A stretch of 64,000 bases of DNA from an uncultured delta proteobacterium (GTDB taxonomy: Bacteria > Desulfobacterota > Desulfomonilia > Desulfomonilales > Desulfomonilaceae): assembly GCA_963789265.1 (NCBI GenBank), contig CAWBKB010000001.1, forward strand, positions 1,184,001-1,248,000, read 5' to 3'. Position 1 is the first letter of the stretch. Every line of letters starts with the position of its first letter. The notes under the pieces are model-generated. The model did not search any database. It saw nothing but the letters and a program-made list of their open reading frames with translations, and had not been told where the DNA came from. Positions 2,281 through 46,230 of the stretch are shown piece by piece. Made by a program: the position numbers and the translations under genes.

Positions 2281-5200
2281 TTGTGTGGAATAGCAGGCTT
2301 TGTAAGCAACGGCCGATGGCAGGAAGTGCCCGATTTATCCTGGATAGACAGCATCCTCAACCAGATGGACGACCTTTGGACCGCTCCGGGTCGGCTGGAA
2401 GAATTTGACGGGCCTCTCAAAGAACTTGTCAGCAGATTCGATGACCTGATGTCATTCGGCTGTCACATGGCTCTCATTGAGGGTGAGAAGTCGGTCGTCC
2501 TACCGAAAATGGAACGCGTTGCGGATCTCCTTGGCCGCGTGCTCGAACGAACCGCGGATTTGACCGCGTCGCAAGGGCGCAGCGATGCCCTTGAACAACT
2601 TGAGGAGGACGCACGGGACTGTCTGTGGCAAATCAAGGAGGAAGTCCTTGGAAACGTGGTTAGGACCACGAATTTGCTGCCTGAAGGATTCGCGACACCC
2701 GATTCCGGGCATGCACGTCATTTTGTGGCGTGGGCGGTCGAGCAAGTGATGGAGAACATTGACCGCCTGGAGGTTCGCGGCCGAGATTCAGCGGGGATAG
2801 CAATTCAATGTTTGCTGTTCAAAGATGTCGACTTCGAGCCCATTTTAGGGCGGGATGCTCAAGATGACGGGCCCTGCGGCGAAACACTGAGAAGCGGAGT
2901 CCAGCGGATCATAAACACAACGAAACTGGCCGATGCCCGGATCTCTTACACATTTATATACAAGATTGCGAATCTGGTGGGCCGCCTTGGTGACAACACA
3001 AGTCGACTCCGCGAGGCCGTTCATGGCGACAAATTGCTGTGGCAAGCGGCAGCCTTTACAGAGCAGGTGAACATTATCGCACACACGCGGTGGGCTTCTA
3101 ATGGCATAATCAGCCTGTCGAACTGCCATCCCGTCGATGGCTGCCTGCGCGATCGAGATCACCTTGCCACACTTGACGACACAAGCGCGCAATTCGTTCT
3201 CAATGGAGACGTGGATAACTATCAGACTCTGATGGATGCGGTGGTGAGGGGTGAAGGATACGACATCGATCCTTTGGTCACCACGGACACAAAGATCTTG
3301 CCGCTGTTGTATCGTCTTGGCACAGATTCCGCCAAATTGCCTGAAGATCGGTTCGCAGCAGTTCTGAACGCGTGCGAAGGGTCGATGGCCGTTGTCATGC
3401 AGCATCCTCATCATCCGAGAACTTTGTTCCTCGGCCAGAAAGGGAGCGGACAAAGTCTATTTGTGGGTAAACTCAAGGATGGGTTTATGTTTGCCTCCGA
3501 GGTCTATGGGCTGGCCGCTCGCACCCGCTGGTCATACAGCCTCTCAGGTACCGAGCGCGGCGGGACTCAAGTAGTTCTAACCGTGGGAGCTTCACATCCG
3601 GACCGGATGACCGGCAGGTATTTGGAAGACGGCCGGCCCTTCGGCATCAAAGGCGAACCCATCTACATTCATTCCCGGGATATTTTCCGCGGCTCGTACA
3701 ACTATTATTTCGAAAAGGAGATACACGAGGCCCCATCCAGCATCAGAAAAACCATCAGACATAAGTACAGCAAGGTTGCCGGCAGAATAGACTTCTCCAA
3801 AGAGGGCGGCGGAAGCTTCGGTCCCCTTCTGGGGCGGCTGCGAGATCCTGTGTTGCCCCCTATAAGGAGGGTCACGGTTATCGGTCAAGGAACAGCGTCA
3901 GTTGCGGCTATGGGAGCCGCCTATCTGATCGAACGGGCGCTTAGGGGATCTCGTGTTTCAATAGACTGGCGGAAATCCTCGGAGATGTCGGGCTTCCTGT
4001 CTGAAGAGCCTCTCGCAGACATGCTGTTGATAGCGATTTCTCAGAGCGGGACTACCACAGACACCAATCGCACGGTGGATGTGGCTGGTTCACAGGGTGC
4101 GTGGGTTCATGCCATTGTGAACCGCCGCAACTCTCCTCTGGTGGCCAAGTCCAATTCTCATTTCTATACAAGCGACGGTCGCGACGTGGAAATGGCCGTA
4201 GCATCCACCAAGGCATTCTACTCACAGATCGCAGCCGCTAAAATCACGGCCCTCTTATTGGCCCAAGAATTCAACACCTTGGCAGGAGAAGAGATCTACG
4301 AAGAAATCCAGGAATTGGAGAAACTCCCCGGCGAAATTGAATCTGTGTTGAGGCAATGCGACACCATCAAGGAGTACGCGGAAAAGTACGGGCCGGCTAA
4401 CCGCAATTGGGCCGTGGTCGGAAACGGCCCCAACAAGATCGCGGCGGATGAAATCAGGATAAAGCTTAGCGAGCTCTGTTATAAGTCGATTCCTTGCGAT
4501 TTCACCGAGGATAAGAAGCACATTGATCTGTCAACCGAACCCCTGACATTGGTGGTGGCCAACGATCTGCCGGAACAACTCGTTCAGGACACCGTGAAAG
4601 AGGTCGCCATTTTCAAAGCCCATAACGGCAAGCCGCTCGTGTTATGTGCCCGCGGCGAAAAACGTTTTAAGGAGCATGCGGAGCACTTGATCGAACTGCC
4701 AACCATTGGGGCAGGATTAGGATTTGTCTTGGCCACGGTAGCGGGACATCTGTGGGGATTTTACGCGGCCAAGGCGATAGATGCTTCCGCTGAAGAACTT
4801 CGAAATGTCCGGACCCTGTTGGCGAAGGCCCTGGGAGAACCGGACGGTTGGGACCCGGACGCTTTGAGATCAAAGTTTGGCAAGGTGATGAAGCTCATAG
4901 GATCAGGAGAGATGAACGCTTCGCTCCCCGCATCTACGGTTGCAGCTATGGCCCTGTATGCCGCGCGCCTTGAGTACAGCCCACACGGACGCGAGGTAGC
5001 GAGAGTTGACATCGAGCAAGGTATAGCAATACTGAACAGTGCCATAGAAGATATGACTCGACCCATTGATACGATTCGACATCAGGCCAAGACTGTCACA
5101 GTGGGTATTTCTCGGCCGCAGGAAGTGTTGCCGCCGGTCTTGCTGAGTGCCCTTGAGCAATTATCCGTGCTTCCCGGCCACATCAGGGAGCAGGATCGCC

Positions 5201-22433: not shown

Positions 22434-23086
22434 CAAGGCTTCGCCGATGCCTGGTTGTTCCCCGGTACCAGGAAATTGGTCAGTTCGGTCCGAAATGGAC
22501 AATCCCACGGGTCCTGCCCCGAGCAAAGGCCGTGCCAGTCTCCTTGCGGATCCCGCCATCCTGATGACCATCCCACTGCCACGTAAATCTTCCATGTATT
22601 CCCGCCACAAGGCTTGATTATGCTATTGACTTCCTGAGAATCGCTAACGATCCATCTATAGAAAATGCCGGCATAATTCTGGCCGTCCGGTTGAGAGTTC
22701 GTACCATAGTACCCGATGCCTTCAACGCAACTGCCCACGCAATTGGGAGGGGACGTGTCCCTGGAGACCTCATTAAACGGCCAGTCCGGGCCCCAAAAAT
22801 CTGTGGTAAAGTTGGAAGCCAGGGGGTCCGGAACCAAAGTGAAATTGGTAGTGTTGTTAAGGTCCGAAACTTTTTTTATGGAATTTGCGGAGGACAGTGC
22901 GCCTTTTAATTGCTCAAATATTTCCTGAGCAACAACGTCCGCAGATTGCTGCTGAACTGAAACCGCGTTGTAATTCAGAGACACCTGGAGCAGCTTTGAA
23001 AGCGCAAATATGCCTACGGTGAGAATGAACAGAGCCACCATGGCTTCAACTAAGCTGAATCCTCTATTTCCTGGAGCTTCTCGCAT
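22433..23086 (-). CDS. pilV: Type IV minor pilin, PilV-like (alternative start 23146)
   Basis: NRG|FSLVEAMVALFILTVGIFAL. Confidence 0.78.
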   Translation of the reverse strand: MREAPGNRGFSLVEAMVALFILTVGIFALSKLLQVSLNYNAVSVQQQSADVVAQEIFEQLKGALSSANSIKKVSDLNNTTNFTLVPDPLASNFTTDFWGPDWPFNEVSRDTSPPNCVGSCVEGIGYYGTNSQPDGQNYAGIFYRWIVSDSQEVNSIIKPCGGNTWKIYVAVGWSSGWRDPQGDWHGLCSGQDPWDCPFRTELTNFLVPGNNQASAKP

Positions 23087-30457: not shown

Positions 30458-31537
30458 GAAACAACCTCCTTGCTCACAGTAGGGTGTCCCGCGAAGCGCG
30501 GGACTGCCCGCCGATTTATAGTGGGGTGGGCATCCTGCCCGCCGATTGATCATCGTAATGGCCATTTCGCCGGCGATTCGTAACCCTGGACTCCGAACCG
30601 GGCTCCCGTCTTGCTTCCTGGTGGGACAGGCATCTTGCCTGTCACTTGATGACGGGCAAGATGCCCGTCCCACTGCAGGATGCCCATCCCCACTGAAAGA
30701 TGCCCGAATGAAAACTCTCAAAAACTCATGCGATGGGATAGGTGTAAGGGCGCCACGGACCGGCACCCGATTGCGAATCTGGACTTGCGAATCGAAGAAG
30801 GGCGAAATAGATGCACGACGTTGGAGTACAGCAACGACAGGTGATCTGTGATTGCCGGCAACGGATTGACATGCGCAATTGGAGCGAAAGTCAGATAATA
30901 GCTATGGAAAAGGGTCAGGAGGCAGGTGAAGTCCACCAGGAAGCTTGGCCTCCATGCCCAGAACAAACCAAAATCCAGCCCGAATAGCTCCGAATCTAAT
31001 CCGCCATCCGAGTACTGAGAAATTCCAATGACAAAATTTATAAACGACTCCATCGGTTGAGTCCTCAGTGATCCCATTTGCGAAAGTTGCCAATCAACGA
31101 CATCACCGTTGCTTCGCGCGTCCGGCTGCTTTCACGCGGAAACGCCCTTGGGCTCTGGGGTGGATCGCAGCAACAATTGTGCCAACGCCAAACTTAGAAG
31201 CTCTGAGACGATTCGAAGCGCTGGGCCTCATGTTACGCGGATACAATTCGGCCACCCTAATGTGACAAAATGCGACATCTTTTCGCGGTGGCAGACTTAT
31301 GAGCGTGATATCACACGACATAAAGCCGTCAACAAAGTGGACAGATTTTCAAAGACTATTAAATTATTTTATAGGGAAAACAGGAGTTGAAAAAATGAGG
31401 GGTGATATTATGAGCATAGCCGCGTCTCGGTCATCGAGGGACCCTTCGGCAAGATTTTCAGTGATCCATGCGGTTCCACGCTGTCGCGGTGTTCACCGCA
31501 TCTTACAGGAACTTACGCGAGGAATATTGTGTTCCTT

Positions 31538-37054: not shown

Positions 37055-37129
<75 letters not shown>

Positions 37130-41881: not shown

Positions 41882-42828
41882 TGATACTCAGCAAGCCTTC
41901 ACTTAGAATCTATGTGGCCGGTCACACGGGGATGGTAGGATCCGCCATTTGCAGACGCCTCGCCCGGTCCGGCTACTCGGTCATGAAACCTGCCTCCCGG
42001 GTGGATCTGTGCGATCAGCAGGCTACTCAGAAGTTGCTCGGCGAATTGAAGCCCGACTGGATATTTTTGGCCGCGGCCAAGGTCGGAGGCATTCATGCCA
42101 ACAATACGTACCCGGCTCAATTCATCTATCAAAACCTGACCATTCAAACCAATGTCATTCATGCGGCATACGTGAACAAGGTCAAGAAGCTCCTTTTCCT
42201 CGGCAGTTCGTGCATCTACCCCAAGCTGGCACCGCAGCCCATCAAGGAAGAATATCTGTTGAGCGGTTACCTGGAGCCCACCAACGAAGCGTATTCGATT
42301 GCCAAGATAGCCGGCATCATCATGTGCCAATCATATAACAGGGAGTACGGAACAAATTTCATTTCCCTAATGCCGACCAACTTGTACGGCCCGGGAGACA
42401 ATTTCGATCTGCAGAACGCCCATGTCATCCCCGCATTACTTCGGAAGACCCATGAGGCTCACGAATCGGGAGCGGAATACGTGGAGATCTGGGGGAGCGG
42501 CAGGCCGCGTCGGGAGTTCCTGCATGTGGATGATCTCGCAGATGCCTGTGTGTTCATGATGGAAAATTATGATTCGCATGAAATTGTCAACATAGGAGCC
42601 GGTATTGACATTACTATCCACGATCTGGCTCTGCTTATTAAGGACGTAGTTGGGTACAAGGGAGATATCCGGTTCAACTCAAATATGCCCGACGGCACTC
42701 CACAAAAGCTTCTTAATGTGAGCCGAATATCTGAACTCGGTTGGAAGCCCTCAATACCATTGAGAGAAGGACTGGGGGCCACGTACAGGTGGTTCATTGC
42801 TAATCGGCAAAGTGTGCGGGAAATTTGA
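41881..42828 (+). CDS. fcl: GDP-L-fucose synthase
   Basis: AGHTGMVGSA, AAAKVGGI, GSSCIYP, YSIAK, MPTNLYGPGDNF. Confidence 0.93.
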   Translation: MILSKPSLRIYVAGHTGMVGSAICRRLARSGYSVMKPASRVDLCDQQATQKLLGELKPDWIFLAAAKVGGIHANNTYPAQFIYQNLTIQTNVIHAAYVNKVKKLLFLGSSCIYPKLAPQPIKEEYLLSGYLEPTNEAYSIAKIAGIIMCQSYNREYGTNFISLMPTNLYGPGDNFDLQNAHVIPALLRKTHEAHESGAEYVEIWGSGRPRREFLHVDDLADACVFMMENYDSHEIVNIGAGIDITIHDLALLIKDVVGYKGDIRFNSNMPDGTPQKLLNVSRISELGWKPSIPLREGLGATYRWFIANRQSVREI

Positions 42829-43020
42829 CATCAACGCGGGAATGCCTTTGCATTGAGCAAAATAGGGATTCCACCCATAGGCGTTAAAATAACGAACCTA
42901 TGCCCTCTAACCCCCCTTTAGTAAAGGAGGGAAGGGGGGATTTTGAATGCGAATTGGTTTGAGTCACCGGTGGGCAGTTCAGGCGACGGTGTCGTCTTCG
43001 GCCGTATGGAGGTGGTCACC

Positions 43021-43287
43021 ATGCAGAAAGAGGTTACATGTTGCGATTCTTGTGAGAAGATCCTCACCCGAGGCGGTATCAGGATGCATACCGGGACAGA
43101 TGGAGAAACGGTTGACTTCTGCCCTGATTGCATTGCTGCACTTCTACCCGATTACGCCGCTCGAACAAAGACCAGCTTCTTGACAGTTCAGATCTCGCGA
43201 AACGATTACGTAGTTCTTGCGGCAAAAGGCCGGGAAGACCAGGCATCGGAAGATGACGCCGAAAACGGAGGAGAAGGGGTTGCCTAG
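43021..43287 (+). CDS. Small zinc-ribbon-like hypothetical protein
   Basis: GGAGGT RBS; CDSC...CPDC. Confidence 0.55.
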   Translation: MQKEVTCCDSCEKILTRGGIRMHTGTDGETVDFCPDCIAALLPDYAARTKTSFLTVQISRNDYVVLAAKGREDQASEDDAENGGEGVA

Positions 43288-43311
43288 CCAAGCTCAGGGG
43301 GGCCTTACGGC

Positions 43312-43343
43312 AAAAAAAAAGCAATCCAAGTAGGAGGATTGCT
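43312..43343 (-). terminator. Intrinsic terminator (minus strand)
   Basis: 7-8 bp stem, 8-nt loop, then T9 on the minus strand. Confidence 0.8.
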
Positions 43344-43373
43344 AAAGGGTATGGTTTAGGAGTCGTTGTTGCC
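43312..43373 (-). ncRNA. Candidate sigma54-dependent small RNA (~62 nt)
   Basis: Predicted +1 at 43373 from the -24/-12 promoter; ends in a GCAATCC/GGATTGC hairpin plus 9 U. Confidence 0.6.
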
Positions 43374-43383
43374 TATTGTTGTT

Positions 43384-43399
43384 AGCAACTACCGTGCCA
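43384..43399 (-). promoter_or_regulatory. Sigma54 promoter TGGCACG-GTAG-TTGCT
   Basis: Exact TGGCACG-N4-TTGC consensus. Confidence 0.75.
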
Positions 43400-43607
43400 A
43401 GGCATAGAACATGCTGTTATTGTTGGGTCTGCCGGCAAATCAGGGCTTGCCGCGAGTCTGCTGGATGGTTAATTATTTCTCACCTTACAGGCAGGTTTCT
43501 CCTGCAGTGCGCAAAGTTTTCCCAGGTTGCCCCCGTACCGGGTAACCGAAGTGTTGCTTGCCAAAGCAAACAATTCACGGAGGTTGCGAACACGATGAGA
43601 ATGCAGT

Positions 43608-43817
43608 CTATCCACAGGTGTTTATAACTTCACTGGCTCTGAGCTTACTCAGAACCATGCTCTCCGGATTTCGAATAGTTATGCTTATCGTTTGATATTG
43701 CTGATTAAACCTAACTGTCCCGGTTTGGAGCAGATCGGTCCGAATCTTGAAACTCCGCTGAGTTATCAAAATTATCCACAACTCTACCATCAAGTTATCC
43801 ACAGGCTCTGTGGACCC
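43608..43817. other. DnaA-box cluster (candidate oriC or DnaA-titration site)
   Basis: TTATCCACA at 43772 and 43795; CTATCCACA at 43608; weaker boxes at 43619, 43763 and 43809; AT-rich stretch between. Confidence 0.55.
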
Positions 43818-44100
43818 CCCGCGCAAATTGGATGTCAAGAATTAATTTTTCTTCGGAACCTTGGACGAGGCTGAGTGTCCTAACCAACAAGCCCATGTGC
43901 GAAAGGCATCTACATGCCTGTTTCCGGGTGCTGCGGAAGGAATCCCCCGAATATACTATCATTCGTCTTTAGGCGAGATTCCTTCGAGGCAGAATGCGCG
44001 CATGGGCTTTCGACGTTCTTGGGTGGGTGTCCCGGGAGGATTAATCTGAAAATGTGATATAGTGGCAAACTGATACAGGCTTCTTAGTTCAGAGGTTTTC

Positions 44101-46230
44101 ATGGGAAATTGCCGGCCCCCACGCGGAGATTCTTTTGAGAGCACGGAATCAATCGACGTGGGCGATTTGTTGATCGAAGACGTAACCTCGTCCGGCAGCT
44201 TCGACTTAATGCAATTTGGCACCACTCCTTTCGGGAAATTGCTCCAAGCTTTGCCCGTTCCCGTCCTGTTGATCGACCGGTCCTTTCGCATAATCTTTGC
44301 CAACCGAGCATGTGGCAAAATAAACGCGGAATATGAAAGATTTGTGAGCGGCCCCGTCGACGTAATATCTTCCGATACGCACTCGATAAAGATCGTCCGA
44401 TCCCATTTAAAGGAAGTTTTTTCCACCAGAAAACCGCAGACTTGTGAAGCCGTGCTCCGGACGGGAAGAATCGGCGTCTGGGGTCGCTTATCTTTCCGGT
44501 CTATTAGGAGTGAAGATGAGCGCCTGATACTATTGGTTGTCGAAGATCTTACCGCCGAGAAGAAACAGCTCATTATAAGTGAGAGATACCAGGATGAATT
44601 GCAGAAGGAAGTCGTCGAGCGCAAGAAGGCGGAACGGGCGCTTGAGCAAGCGAATCGGGAACTGGAAGATCGGATAGAACAACGCACATTGGAGTTACTG
44701 AAACTAAACGACCAGATGGAGCAGGAAATCGCTGAACGAGAGCGTGCCCAGAGGCTATTGTACGAGAGTCAGGAGAGGCTCGAGTTGGCGCTGAAAGGAG
44801 CGGATCTTGGGTTATGGGACTACGACATAGAAAAGAATGTGGGATTCGTTGATCAAGTCTGGGCGGATATTTTCGGTTACTCCCTCGAAGACCTGCCGCC
44901 GGACATAAACTTGTGGAGAAGCTTGCTTCATCCGGAAGATAGACCCGCCGTAATTGAAGCATGGAATGCCCACCTGGAAGGCCGTAAGCCTTTTTACGAG
45001 GCGGAGCATAGGGTAAAGGCCAAGTCGGGAGAATGGAATTGGGTCCTGTCCCGGGGGAAGGTTGTAGAACGAGACAGGCACGGCAAGCCTTTACGAGTCT
45101 CCGGAACAGCCTATAACATCTCGGATCGCAAGCTCGCGGAAGAAAAACTTTTGCAAATGTCCAAGGTCTTCATGGAATCGATAGACCCGATCTTCATTAG
45201 AGACCTGGAAGGCAACATAATCGATCTGAACAAGGCGGCTGAAGATACTTACGGATGGTCTCGGGACGAGTTGATCGGCAAGTCTGTCAAGACAATCGTA
45301 TCCGCCACTCGGCACGACGTAGTGGACGAGTTACATGAGAGATGCAAGCGCGGAGATAAAGTGGAAAACGTGGAAGCGCTCCACCGAAATAAGTCGGGTG
45401 ATGTCATACCTGTCCTGGTAAGCCTTTCTCTCTTGACGAACAAGAAAGGTGAGCCGGTGGGCATTGCAAGCATTGCCAAAAACCTGAGCGATCTCAAGCG
45501 GACCGAGGAAATGCTTCGAGCCAAGACCGACGCGTTGGTGCGCAGCAACAAGGATTTGGAGGAGTTTGCTTATGTTGCAGCGCATGACCTGAGGGAACCA
45601 CTTGTCGGAATCGCCGCTTATTTAAAGGTCCTGGAGAAGCGCTTCAAAGCCAGACTCGACCCGGAGGCTCACAAATTTGTCTCCCGTGCACTGGAAATAA
45701 CTATCCGAATGGACTCCCTGGTGCAAAGCCTTCTGTCTTATGCGCGTTTGGGGACTGGGACAAAGTCGTTTCAGCCGACTGACTGTACGGTGGCGCTGGA
45801 GCGAGCCCTATCTAACTTGAGGTCTGCGCTGGAGGAAATCCACGTCAAAGTCAGCAGAGGGCCACTCCCGACCGTGATGGGAAATCTTTCGCAAATGGTC
45901 CAATTATTTCAGAATCTTGTTAGCAATGCCATCAAGTTTGCCGGAGACAGACCTCTTGAGATTCATATCGGCGCGCTGCCGGATGAATCCCAGTGGAAGT
46001 TCTATGTGAAGGATAATGGAATTGGCATCGAACCACCATATTTCGACAGGATCTTTAGAATCTTTCAACGGCTTGAAGCGACTCAGGAACGCGCAGGAAC
46101 GGGTATTGGCCTGGCTAGTTGCAAAAGGATTGTGGAGAGCCACGGTGGGCGAATTTGGGTGGAATCCGAACCCGGCAAGGGCTCGACCTTCTTCTTTACC
46201 ATACCGCGCTCCAAGGAATCCGTGACTTGA
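44101..46230 (+). CDS. Multi-PAS sensor histidine kinase
   Basis: PAS/PAC domains; FAYVAAHDLREPL; QNLVSNAIKF; DNGIGI; GTGIGLA. Confidence 0.92.
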   Translation: MGNCRPPRGDSFESTESIDVGDLLIEDVTSSGSFDLMQFGTTPFGKLLQALPVPVLLIDRSFRIIFANRACGKINAEYERFVSGPVDVISSDTHSIKIVRSHLKEVFSTRKPQTCEAVLRTGRIGVWGRLSFRSIRSEDERLILLVVEDLTAEKKQLIISERYQDELQKEVVERKKAERALEQANRELEDRIEQRTLELLKLNDQMEQEIAERERAQRLLYESQERLELALKGADLGLWDYDIEKNVGFVDQVWADIFGYSLEDLPPDINLWRSLLHPEDRPAVIEAWNAHLEGRKPFYEAEHRVKAKSGEWNWVLSRGKVVERDRHGKPLRVSGTAYNISDRKLAEEKLLQMSKVFMESIDPIFIRDLEGNIIDLNKAAEDTYGWSRDELIGKSVKTIVSATRHDVVDELHERCKRGDKVENVEALHRNKSGDVIPVLVSLSLLTNKKGEPVGIASIAKNLSDLKRTEEMLRAKTDALVRSNKDLEEFAYVAAHDLREPLVGIAAYLKVLEKRFKARLDPEAHKFVSRALEITIRMDSLVQSLLSYARLGTGTKSFQPTDCTVALERALSNLRSALEEIHVKVSRGPLPTVMGNLSQMVQLFQNLVSNAIKFAGDRPLEIHIGALPDESQWKFYVKDNGIGIEPPYFDRIFRIFQRLEATQERAGTGIGLASCKRIVESHGGRIWVESEPGKGSTFFFTIPRSKESVT

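Follow-up and report, generated by a model that had tools for sequence, protein, structure and literature searches.

The window analysed here, a stretch of 64,000 nucleotides (nt) from an uncultured delta proteobacterium of the Desulfomonilaceae (contig CAWBKB010000001.1, positions 1,184,001 to 1,248,000), carries a small RNA (sRNA) locus on its minus strand at 43312..43373 that is a member of a multi-copy family and not a singleton. In the reading that we favour, and to which we give a probability of about 0.65 on the basis of sequence comparison, the locus is one of four paralogous genes for a trans-acting, Qrr-like, activator-dependent sRNA of ~62 nt that would block translation of a group of genes for small, predicted exported Cys/Pro-rich proteins (P genes). 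The family is real, well supported and specific to Desulfomonilaceae, and its core is complementary to the translation-initiation regions of the P genes.

An sRNA family specific to Desulfomonilaceae

Copies of the locus were sought in the window's bacterial family (69 sampled genomes whose records are named Desulfomonile or Desulfomonilaceae) and in its sister family (52 genomes). BLAST searches with 43300..43450 found the locus twice more in the window's own genome and more than once in each of the 24 family genomes sampled, and gave nothing convincing in the sister family. A covariance model (R1), built from 47 distinct copies and comprising 62 positions and 8 pairs, found four copies in the window's own genome, namely the window copy and those at C3:702961-703023, C1:1544574-1544635 and C5:316522-316582. 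R1 matched 66 of the 69 family genomes with 1-7 copies per genome, the three genomes without a match being 73-85% complete, and conservation in relatives, which the initial annotation had left to be checked, was found for promoter and RNA alike. The only matches in the sister family, in 2/52 genomes, were weak (E 0.004 and 0.009). In a pattern scan across 185,579 species, each represented by one genome, 94 stretches came up, 80 of which were listed and checked with R1. The model confirmed 74 of these 80, all labelled as delta-lineage or as an unclassified metagenome-assembled genome, and mostly titled Desulfomonile, Desulfomonilaceae, Desulfomonilales, or with the older labels Syntrophaceae, delta proteobacterium or Thermodesulfobacteriota; the remaining six, all from other phyla, match the short pattern by chance. 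Metagenome-assembled records titled Desulfomonile tiedjei are among those with the gene (L063, L068, L076, L090, L091 and L118), and the genus has cultured members.

Alignments of first ten and then 51 copies showed that TGGCAC and TTGC of the promoter are kept, while the spacer varies, as do the 11-14 bases that separate the promoter from the RNA, and the flanks are unrelated. The 60 transcribed nt are more strongly conserved than the promoter and follow the near-invariant consensus AACAACGACUCCU-(A)AACCAUACCCU-YUUAGCAAUCCUCCU-loop-GGAUUGCU8-10. Within the seed, CCATA (CCAUA in the RNA) is invariant in 47/47 aligned copies, and the single frequent change is C to U in CCAUAUCC, opposite a G, so that a G-U pair is retained.

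A search of the whole window against Rfam 15, whose families include Qrr, Pxr, GlmY/Z and CrcZ, returned only a tRNA gene above the gathering threshold (37055..37126, plus strand). When matches with E up to 10 were admitted for 42800..44300, three noise matches to eukaryotic families appeared, none overlapping 43312..43415, in agreement with the view of the initial annotation that the RNA is undescribed.

The predicted RNA and its promoter in the window

The features of the locus are as follows.

43384..43399, minus strand: sigma-54 promoter, -24 TGGCAC / -12 TTGC (TGGCACGGTAGTTGCT), exact consensus, conserved among copies
43312..43373, minus strand: predicted 62-nt sRNA, +1 placed at G 43373 from promoter geometry; R1 score 77.3 bits, E 3e-13
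43358..43370, minus strand: 5′ unpaired A/C-rich tract AACAACGACUCCU (RNA nt 4-16), conserved in the 47-copy alignment
43346..43356, minus strand: core seed AACCAUACCCU (RNA nt 18-28), complementary to AGGGUAUGGUU of the P genes
43332..43341, minus strand: CAAUCCUCCU (RNA nt 33-42), the terminator 5′ arm and first four loop bases, complementary to AGGAGGAUUG in the P-gene Shine-Dalgarno (SD) region
43312..43343, minus strand: intrinsic terminator with an 8-bp stem (43343..43336 with 43327..43320), an 8-nt loop and a U9 tail (43319..43312)
43507..43525, no strand assigned: distal enhancer-like palindrome (site 1), plus-strand sequence GTGCGCAAAGTTTTCCCAG, 13/16 matches to GTGCGAAA-N3-TTTCGCAC
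43465..43483, no strand assigned: proximal enhancer-like palindrome (site 2), 11/16 matches, 42 bp from site 1

The initial annotation had described a sigma-54-driven RNA with an exact minus-strand consensus, a +1 at 43373, a 62-nt product without an open reading frame (ORF), and two CUCCU motifs, and each of these elements was recovered. The consensus TGGCACGGTAGTTGCT lies at 43399..43384 and is followed by eleven bases and then by the 62-mer GGCAACAACGACUCCUAAACCAUACCCUUUAGCAAUCCUCCUACUUGGAUUGCUUUUUUUUU at 43373..43312, identical to the sequence given there. With the C of the -12 GC at 43385, promoter geometry would place the start at G 43373. The RNA contains no AUG or GUG, and CUCCU occurs unpaired at nt 12-16 and again within CCUCCU at nt 37-42, at the stem edge and in the loop. 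Folding of the 62-mer yields the hairpin AGCAAUCC/GGAUUGCU with its U9 tail as sole structure (-11.9 kcal/mol, z -3.9, 0/200 shuffles as stable), and a terminator scan recovered the same hairpin at 43343..43320, with two terminator-like sites found in 2 kb vs 2.7 expected. The A/C-rich tract is a possible Hfq-binding (AAN)n tract and, equally as a candidate, a possible secondary pairing site. A second, divergent GG-N10-GC site noted by the initial annotation at 43400..43415 on the plus strand is indeed present, but is not conserved in four aligned orthologous copies and is for that reason taken as a chance occurrence.

Conservation of promoter, enhancer-like sites and terminator

The comparative data support a sigma-54-driven, ORF-less RNA of ~60 nt through its conserved promoter, enhancer-like sites and covarying terminator. 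Among 110 distinct copies, the 45 nt preceding the RNA contain TGGYAY-N5-TTGC in 97 and GG-N10-GC in 108. The C of the -12 GC sits 13-14 nt before the motif AACAACG in 88 of 97 copies, although the bases between them vary, and from this fixed distance the likely +1 was placed ~3 nt before AACAACG, which corresponds to G 43373 in the window.

Orthologous upstream regions have two blocks in common, each being the palindrome GTGCGAAA-N3-TTTCGCAC. With a threshold of at least 11/16 matches, at least one such site was found in 45 of the 52 copies with enough upstream sequence vs 33 of 1040 shuffles, and two sites in 27/52 copies vs 1/1040 shuffles. Paired palindromes are centred near -145 and -104 with a spacing of 39-43 bp in 26 of 27 cases, and in the window, as elsewhere, ~145 nt separate the centre of site 1 from the conserved AACAACG downstream of it.

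At the terminator hairpin 97.3% of cells are paired, and three of the eight pairs have substitutions in both partners (two of them AU to CG, one UA to CG). The covariation score was reached by 0/500 shuffles, and controls in which the pairing was slid had 29-52% of cells paired. RNAalifold predicted the terminator hairpin only, leaving the 5′ 35 columns unpaired.

A further pair of palindromes was seen in the window's own genome (G000) at C3:655900..656041 (locus L154, about 4901..5042). These tandem sites match 13 and 15 of 16 positions, lie 42 bp apart, and are 89 and 131 bp from a minus-strand sigma-54 promoter, TGGCACGACCATTGC, the same distance as in the sRNA copies; this promoter stands upstream of a 114-amino-acid (aa) ORF without a family and of an M3 peptidase gene. 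Rfam returned nothing at this second locus, and the promoter is probably a further member of the same activator's regulon.

Paralogue types

At least four paralogue types can be distinguished, each in its own conserved neighbourhood; the downstream genes vary from locus to locus and are in many cases convergent. Copies of the window type are often followed by a lipid-kinase-like gene in convergent orientation. The best-conserved type follows rsmB in 10 loci of different genera, and a third type has GUAUAUA in place of GACUCCU. In the fourth type the terminator differs, with compensating changes (AGCCCUCCUGC...GGCGGGCU). This type follows mdh in four loci, in two of which a miaB-like gene comes next; it keeps the sigma-54 promoter and has no palindromes, so that the family probably answers to more than one activator. 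At one locus of another genus of the family (L035, also L126), two sRNA copies stand in tandem ~210 bp apart, the second with a degenerate promoter (TGGTAC-N5-TGTGC).

Complementarity to the initiation regions of the P genes

The P genes of the window's genome lie in two tandem pairs, P1 (156 aa) and P2 (130 aa) on contig C3 (C3:881873..882976, locus L156), and P3 (165 aa) and P4 (124 aa) on contig C7 (C7:65537..66485, locus L157). All four products begin with MVK[RK] followed by a hydrophobic, signal-peptide-like stretch, the remainder being Cys/Pro-rich, and their signal peptides suggest that they are exported or envelope proteins. They had no Pfam or NCBIfam match, and a protein atlas assigned them with scores of at most 0.88 to unnamed clusters, which gave nothing usable. 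Strong sigma-70-like promoters (TTGACA-type) with A-tracts lie upstream of the pairs, no sigma-54 site was found in the P-gene upstream regions, and a gene for an extracytoplasmic function sigma factor follows P2. Further MVK-type relatives were seen at C8:84901 and about C7:389987.

The RNA core, AACCAUACCCU-(UUAG)-CAAUCCUCCU, is the reverse complement of the SD-to-start stretch of four to six of these small, predicted exported Cys/Pro-rich protein genes. A search for exact 10-mer complements surfaced start regions of the form gaaAGGAGGAU(U)GAGGGUAUGGUUaa. In these, the partner of AACCAUACCCU (nt 18-28) is AGGGUAUGGUU, which spans the start codon together with 5 preceding and 3 following nt, and that of CAAUCCUCCU (nt 33-42) is AGGAGGAUUG; the UUAG of the RNA bulges between the two helices. 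The initial annotation had proposed that the RNA acts on ribosome-binding sites through its CUCCU motifs. Action at such sites is indeed predicted by complementarity, but the key parts are CCAUACCCU and the loop-side CCUCCU rather than the 5′ CUCCU: these two segments have the strongest conservation and the best predicted pairing and are jointly antisense to one specific SD-to-AUG stretch, and the 5′ CUCCU matters less than had been supposed because it is missing from one of the four paralogue types.

A score for exact complementarity in two blocks was computed between RNA nt 17-43 and 28,592 candidate initiation regions of the genome. The maximum, 21/21 nt, was reached by P3; seven regions scored at least 18 and 20 regions at least 16. 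The top six rows comprise P3, P4, P2, two alternative starts of another MVK-type ORF on C7, and P1, and thus represent five genes, all with MVK and a signal peptide. A score of 21 was reached by one of 150 fully shuffled RNAs, which on average had 4.9 regions at 16 or above; when CCTCCT was kept in place, two of 150 shuffles reached at least 21 and the average was 6.5. Cofolding of all four paralogues with P1-P4 gave gains of -20 to -30 kcal/mol vs shuffle means of -10 to -18, and the fourth paralogue type (the C5 copy, cofolded with P3) is predicted to pair with the same stretch almost free of bulges. Codons 6-8 of P1 and P2 (AGUCGUU, CGUUGU) are, in many genera, complementary to AACGACU/ACAACG at the RNA 5′ end.

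The motif GGAGGAW-N1-2-AGGGTATGGT occurs in 68 of the 69 family genomes, usually at four positions that form two pairs (570-750 bp apart), vs 1/52 genomes of the sister family, and a reversed-pattern control gave 0. A looser target pattern also caught the antisense strand of the fourth sRNA type, which was therefore excluded from this count. In 30 fetched loci, 55/55 motif matches precede ORFs that start with MVK or MVR and continue into a hydrophobic stretch. The initiation stretch is invariant across ~26 genera while neighbouring bases vary, and the variable mRNA bases between GGAGGA and AGGG (UUG, UG, UUA or UUU) are those that face the RNA bulge. Conservation of the initiation regions column by column was not used as an argument, since the regions had been picked by the motif and the measure would be circular.

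Two simpler metrics did not separate the RNA from controls. Duplex energies computed genome-wide from 7-mer seeds showed no excess over a reversed-seed control (1677 vs 2111 sites at -20 kcal/mol or below), and this metric was dropped; exact 10-mer complements were not enriched (204 vs 293 and 204 in two controls), leaving position and collinearity as the only informative properties.

An exact 11-mer complement of sRNA nt 3-13 was also seen at nine sites of the window's own genome (e.g. C1:834724, C1:1437077, C5:370930 and C8:121716), within a repeated element that is probably an insertion sequence. A 78-aa ORF has a possible start codon ~12 nt further on, and the match may be due to chance.

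Proposed mechanism

In the mechanism that we propose, the sigma-54 promoter would start transcription at G 43373 once a putative NtrC-type enhancer-binding protein (EBP), responding to its signal, is bound at the two palindromes (GTGCGAAA-N3-TTTCGCAC) ~100 and ~140 bp upstream, and transcription would end at the hairpin and U-tail. The 5′ half of the RNA is predicted to be unpaired, and its core would act as antisense to 5′-AGGAGGAUUG-AGGGUAUGGUU-3′ in the translation-initiation regions of the P genes. Pairing might nucleate at the free seed and the loop bases UCCU and then open the terminator stem, and the resulting duplex would cover the SD and AUG and block ribosome loading; it is because the predicted pairing covers both that we infer repression as the direction of regulation. 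Hfq would probably assist, and the genome has one hfq and one rpoN (one Sigma54_DBD match). The circuit would then resemble Qrr/LuxO in its architecture, and the sigma-E sRNAs acting on abundant envelope proteins in its output.

The same genome has 43 PF00158 matches, corresponding to ~38 EBP genes. The idea of an adjacent activator was rejected for the large same-strand ORFs upstream of many copies, which are rsmB, an aminotransferase gene, mdh and similar genes and do not encode EBPs, and no EBP was found among 44 flanking ORFs in other genomes.

How the family arose is a more tentative matter. The sRNA may have originated from its own target: the P-gene 5′ end, comprising the SD, start codon and first signal-peptide codons, could have been duplicated in inverted orientation and captured by an antisense sigma-54 promoter, and the gene could since have multiplied to three to seven paralogues, forming a Qrr-like hub that answers to at least two different activators and sets the output of a lineage-specific group of abundant secreted Cys/Pro-rich proteins. 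We put this scenario forward as a conjecture to which the odds are somewhat unfavourable. If true, it would provide a bacterial sRNA whose birth from its own target remains legible in the sequence.

Evidence against P-gene repression and alternative explanations

A number of observations weigh against repression of the P genes by an activator-dependent sRNA. The empirical p of the best two-block match is only ~0.01 within one genome, plain duplex energy ranks P1 10th and P3 14th of the 28,592 regions, shuffled C-rich RNAs also pair well with purine-rich initiation regions, and 10 of the 21 predicted pairs need the terminator stem to be opened. The P genes are paralogues, so that their shared initiation region counts as one event and not four. 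The P2 family was found in 63/69 genomes of the window's family vs 0/52 of the sister family and is therefore lineage-specific, and as the sRNA is so too, their co-occurrence follows phylogeny and carries little weight. The complementarity could also reflect how the gene originated and not what it does now.

On the side of the activator, no EBP gene lies within ~25 kb of any of the four copies; the nearest PF00158 gene is ~26 kb from the window copy and none is closer to the other three. Two candidates with a palindrome-like site upstream gained no support from the other genomes checked. One was a PilS/PilR-like pair (G000 C3:788948..792050, locus L197), with a site 100 nt upstream that was not kept in four other genera (five genomes checked, one of them without a clear orthologue). 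The other was a PAS-domain EBP gene (C6:196782..198431), with a site 53 nt upstream that was not conserved at the two loci checked. Among the best-matching genes of these candidates elsewhere, no site of at least 11/16 was found at the same position, and one 11/16 site was found at another position at one locus. At L197 (C3:788849..792050) the genes for the PilS-like kinase and the PilR-like sigma-54 activator are arranged as an operon, which has only the one palindrome-like site.

With respect to expression, a search of sequencing runs listed no RNA data set that contains the locus, and the sole candidate RNA run (X1, 4/16 words) was discarded as it proved to contain DNA of related copies, and it gives no evidence on expression; its three contigs cover only 43309..43373 and run into unlike flanks, one of them with a sigma-54 promoter.

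The alternative that best survives these data is a genuine sigma-54 sRNA which regulates other mRNAs through CUCCU/CCUCCU or the 5′ AACAACGACUCCU, its match to the P genes being a fossil from the time when the gene arose out of an inverted piece of a P-gene 5′ end. Read on the antisense strand, the sRNA genes do look like a P-gene start, with an SD, ATGGTT and then, in the mdh-linked type, AAAGGAGTCGTT; the failure of plain duplex energies to single out the P genes points the same way, as does the conserved 5′ tract, of which pairing with P1 and P2 explains only a part. A relic would be expected to decay, yet CCAUA has stayed invariant in all 47 copies and the mRNA side across ~26 genera next to bases that vary, and the sole frequent seed change, C to U opposite G, preserves a G-U pair. 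We consider this alternative unlikely.

A function in binding or titrating a protein, be it an RNA chaperone, a ribosomal protein or a translational regulator with affinity for single-stranded C/A-rich RNA, would agree with the very short and highly conserved single-stranded motifs and with the multi-copy nature of the gene, which recalls CsrB/RsmY-type sponges. It is nevertheless a distinctly improbable explanation, as the RNA has no repeated GGA or other known sponge motifs and just one hairpin, and the 21-nt complementarity to a conserved initiation region would be left unexplained.

Still more improbable is a conserved DNA element (a sigma-54 roadblock or insulator) or a leader or attenuator of a neighbouring gene in place of a free-standing RNA gene. 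No transcript has been seen, and E. coli sigma-54 holoenzyme occupies many non-productive sites, according to the summary in PMC4591121; against this, the 60 transcribed nt outdo the promoter in conservation, the hairpin covaries as an RNA, the downstream genes vary by locus and are often convergent, and the enhancer-like sites keep a fixed geometry.

Each motif is common alone (two terminator-like sites vs 2.7 expected in 2 kb), but a chance pairing of a promoter-like word with a terminator-like hairpin is refuted by ~110 distinct conserved copies in 66 of 69 related genomes, and its probability is negligible.

Genomic context of the window locus

The neighbouring genes of the window copy are a convergent gene downstream (43021..43287, plus strand, 88 aa, with a GGAGG ribosome site) and a divergent PAS histidine kinase gene upstream (44101..46230, plus strand), ~700 bp away. 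Because the one is convergent and the other divergent, no protein gene explains the terminator, as the initial annotation had stated. A leader or micropeptide reading was rejected, the RNA having no start codon and the downstream gene being convergent.

The ~570 bp between the enhancer sites and the histidine kinase gene (43530..44100) hold no convincing ORF; this region is shared with the orthologous locus of the same genus over at least 330 bp upstream of the sRNA, and includes a sigma-70-like site at 43747..43775 on the plus strand. Across the 64 kb, TGGCACG-N4-TTGCW occurs exactly twice and, with up to one mismatch, three times vs 0.57 expected (3/100 shuffles reach three). The two further words, both on the minus strand, are at 22522..22537 and 31169..31184; one is exact (TGGCACGGCCTTTGCT) and the other has a single mismatch, and that at 22522..22537 may fall within an ORF.

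Significance and comparison with known systems

Desulfomonilaceae are widespread anaerobes that include dehalogenating organisms. No riboregulator has been described for them before, in so far as no paper was found that combines 'Desulfomonile' and 'sRNA', and neither the RNA family nor its enhancer motif nor its target set was found in print. The analysis provides a covariance model, ~110 distinct gene copies, a defined enhancer motif and a specific, testable target set, and therefore opens a way to study post-transcriptional control in this lineage, as well as what an unannotated secreted Cys/Pro-rich protein family does.

Pxr of Myxococcus is a sigma-54-dependent sRNA. Like Pxr, the RNA described here would be a sigma-54- and EBP-controlled sRNA in a former deltaproteobacterium, but the two differ in size and structure, and the present RNA has no Rfam match. 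The C-rich RNAs RsaE/RoxS of Firmicutes are anti-SD sRNAs, and share with the present family unpaired C-rich motifs aimed at the SD; the pairing predicted here, unlike theirs, runs through the start codon and is nearly gene-specific (21 nt), and there is no homology. In enterobacteria the sigma-E-dependent sRNAs MicA, RybB and MicL shut off abundant envelope proteins. The family resembles them as a short sRNA driven by an alternative sigma factor, with a 5′ seed and a predicted shut-off of abundant exported or envelope proteins. It differs in its sigma factor and has no homology to them, and the envelope role of the P proteins is suggested by their signal peptides.

The sigma-54-dependent kind of sRNA is already known, since such non-coding RNAs (ncRNAs) are on record for Desulfovibrio. 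In the excerpts available from PMC3333781 and PMC4641369, the sigma-54 ncRNAs of D. vulgaris Hildenborough comprise Dv_sRNA2, under DVU0679, and others under DVU0653, DVU1419 and DVU2359, and in the table of PMC4641369 three of the four adjoin the gene of their own activator. Their functions are likewise unknown, as far as these excerpts go. A ranking in PMC4641369 places Desulfomonile tiedjei first for sigma-54 activators relative to genome size. The present family and the Desulfovibrio ncRNAs, here compared by description, are alike in being ORF-less sigma-54 units with upstream activator sites in an EBP-rich lineage of the sulfate-reducer type, but differ in that none of the four present copies lies within ~25 kb of an activator gene.

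The likeness to Qrr is one of organisation and not of descent, there being no relationship in sequence or in Rfam. Qrr1-5 of Vibrionaceae are sigma-54- and LuxO-controlled, Hfq-dependent RNAs of ~100 nt with four hairpins. The present RNA, from another phylum, differs from them with its ~62 nt and one hairpin, has another enhancer motif and no activator gene beside any copy, and its predicted targets are exported, structural-looking proteins and not master regulators. As in Qrr, several near-identical paralogues per genome have their own sigma-54 promoters and common upstream activator sites, an invariant seed stands between variable flanks, the predicted pairing is at translation starts, and at least one paralogue type (the mdh-linked type, without palindromes) appears to be under different upstream control. 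The family thereby adds a case in which several sigma-54 sRNA paralogues have one type of enhancer and another paralogue is without it.

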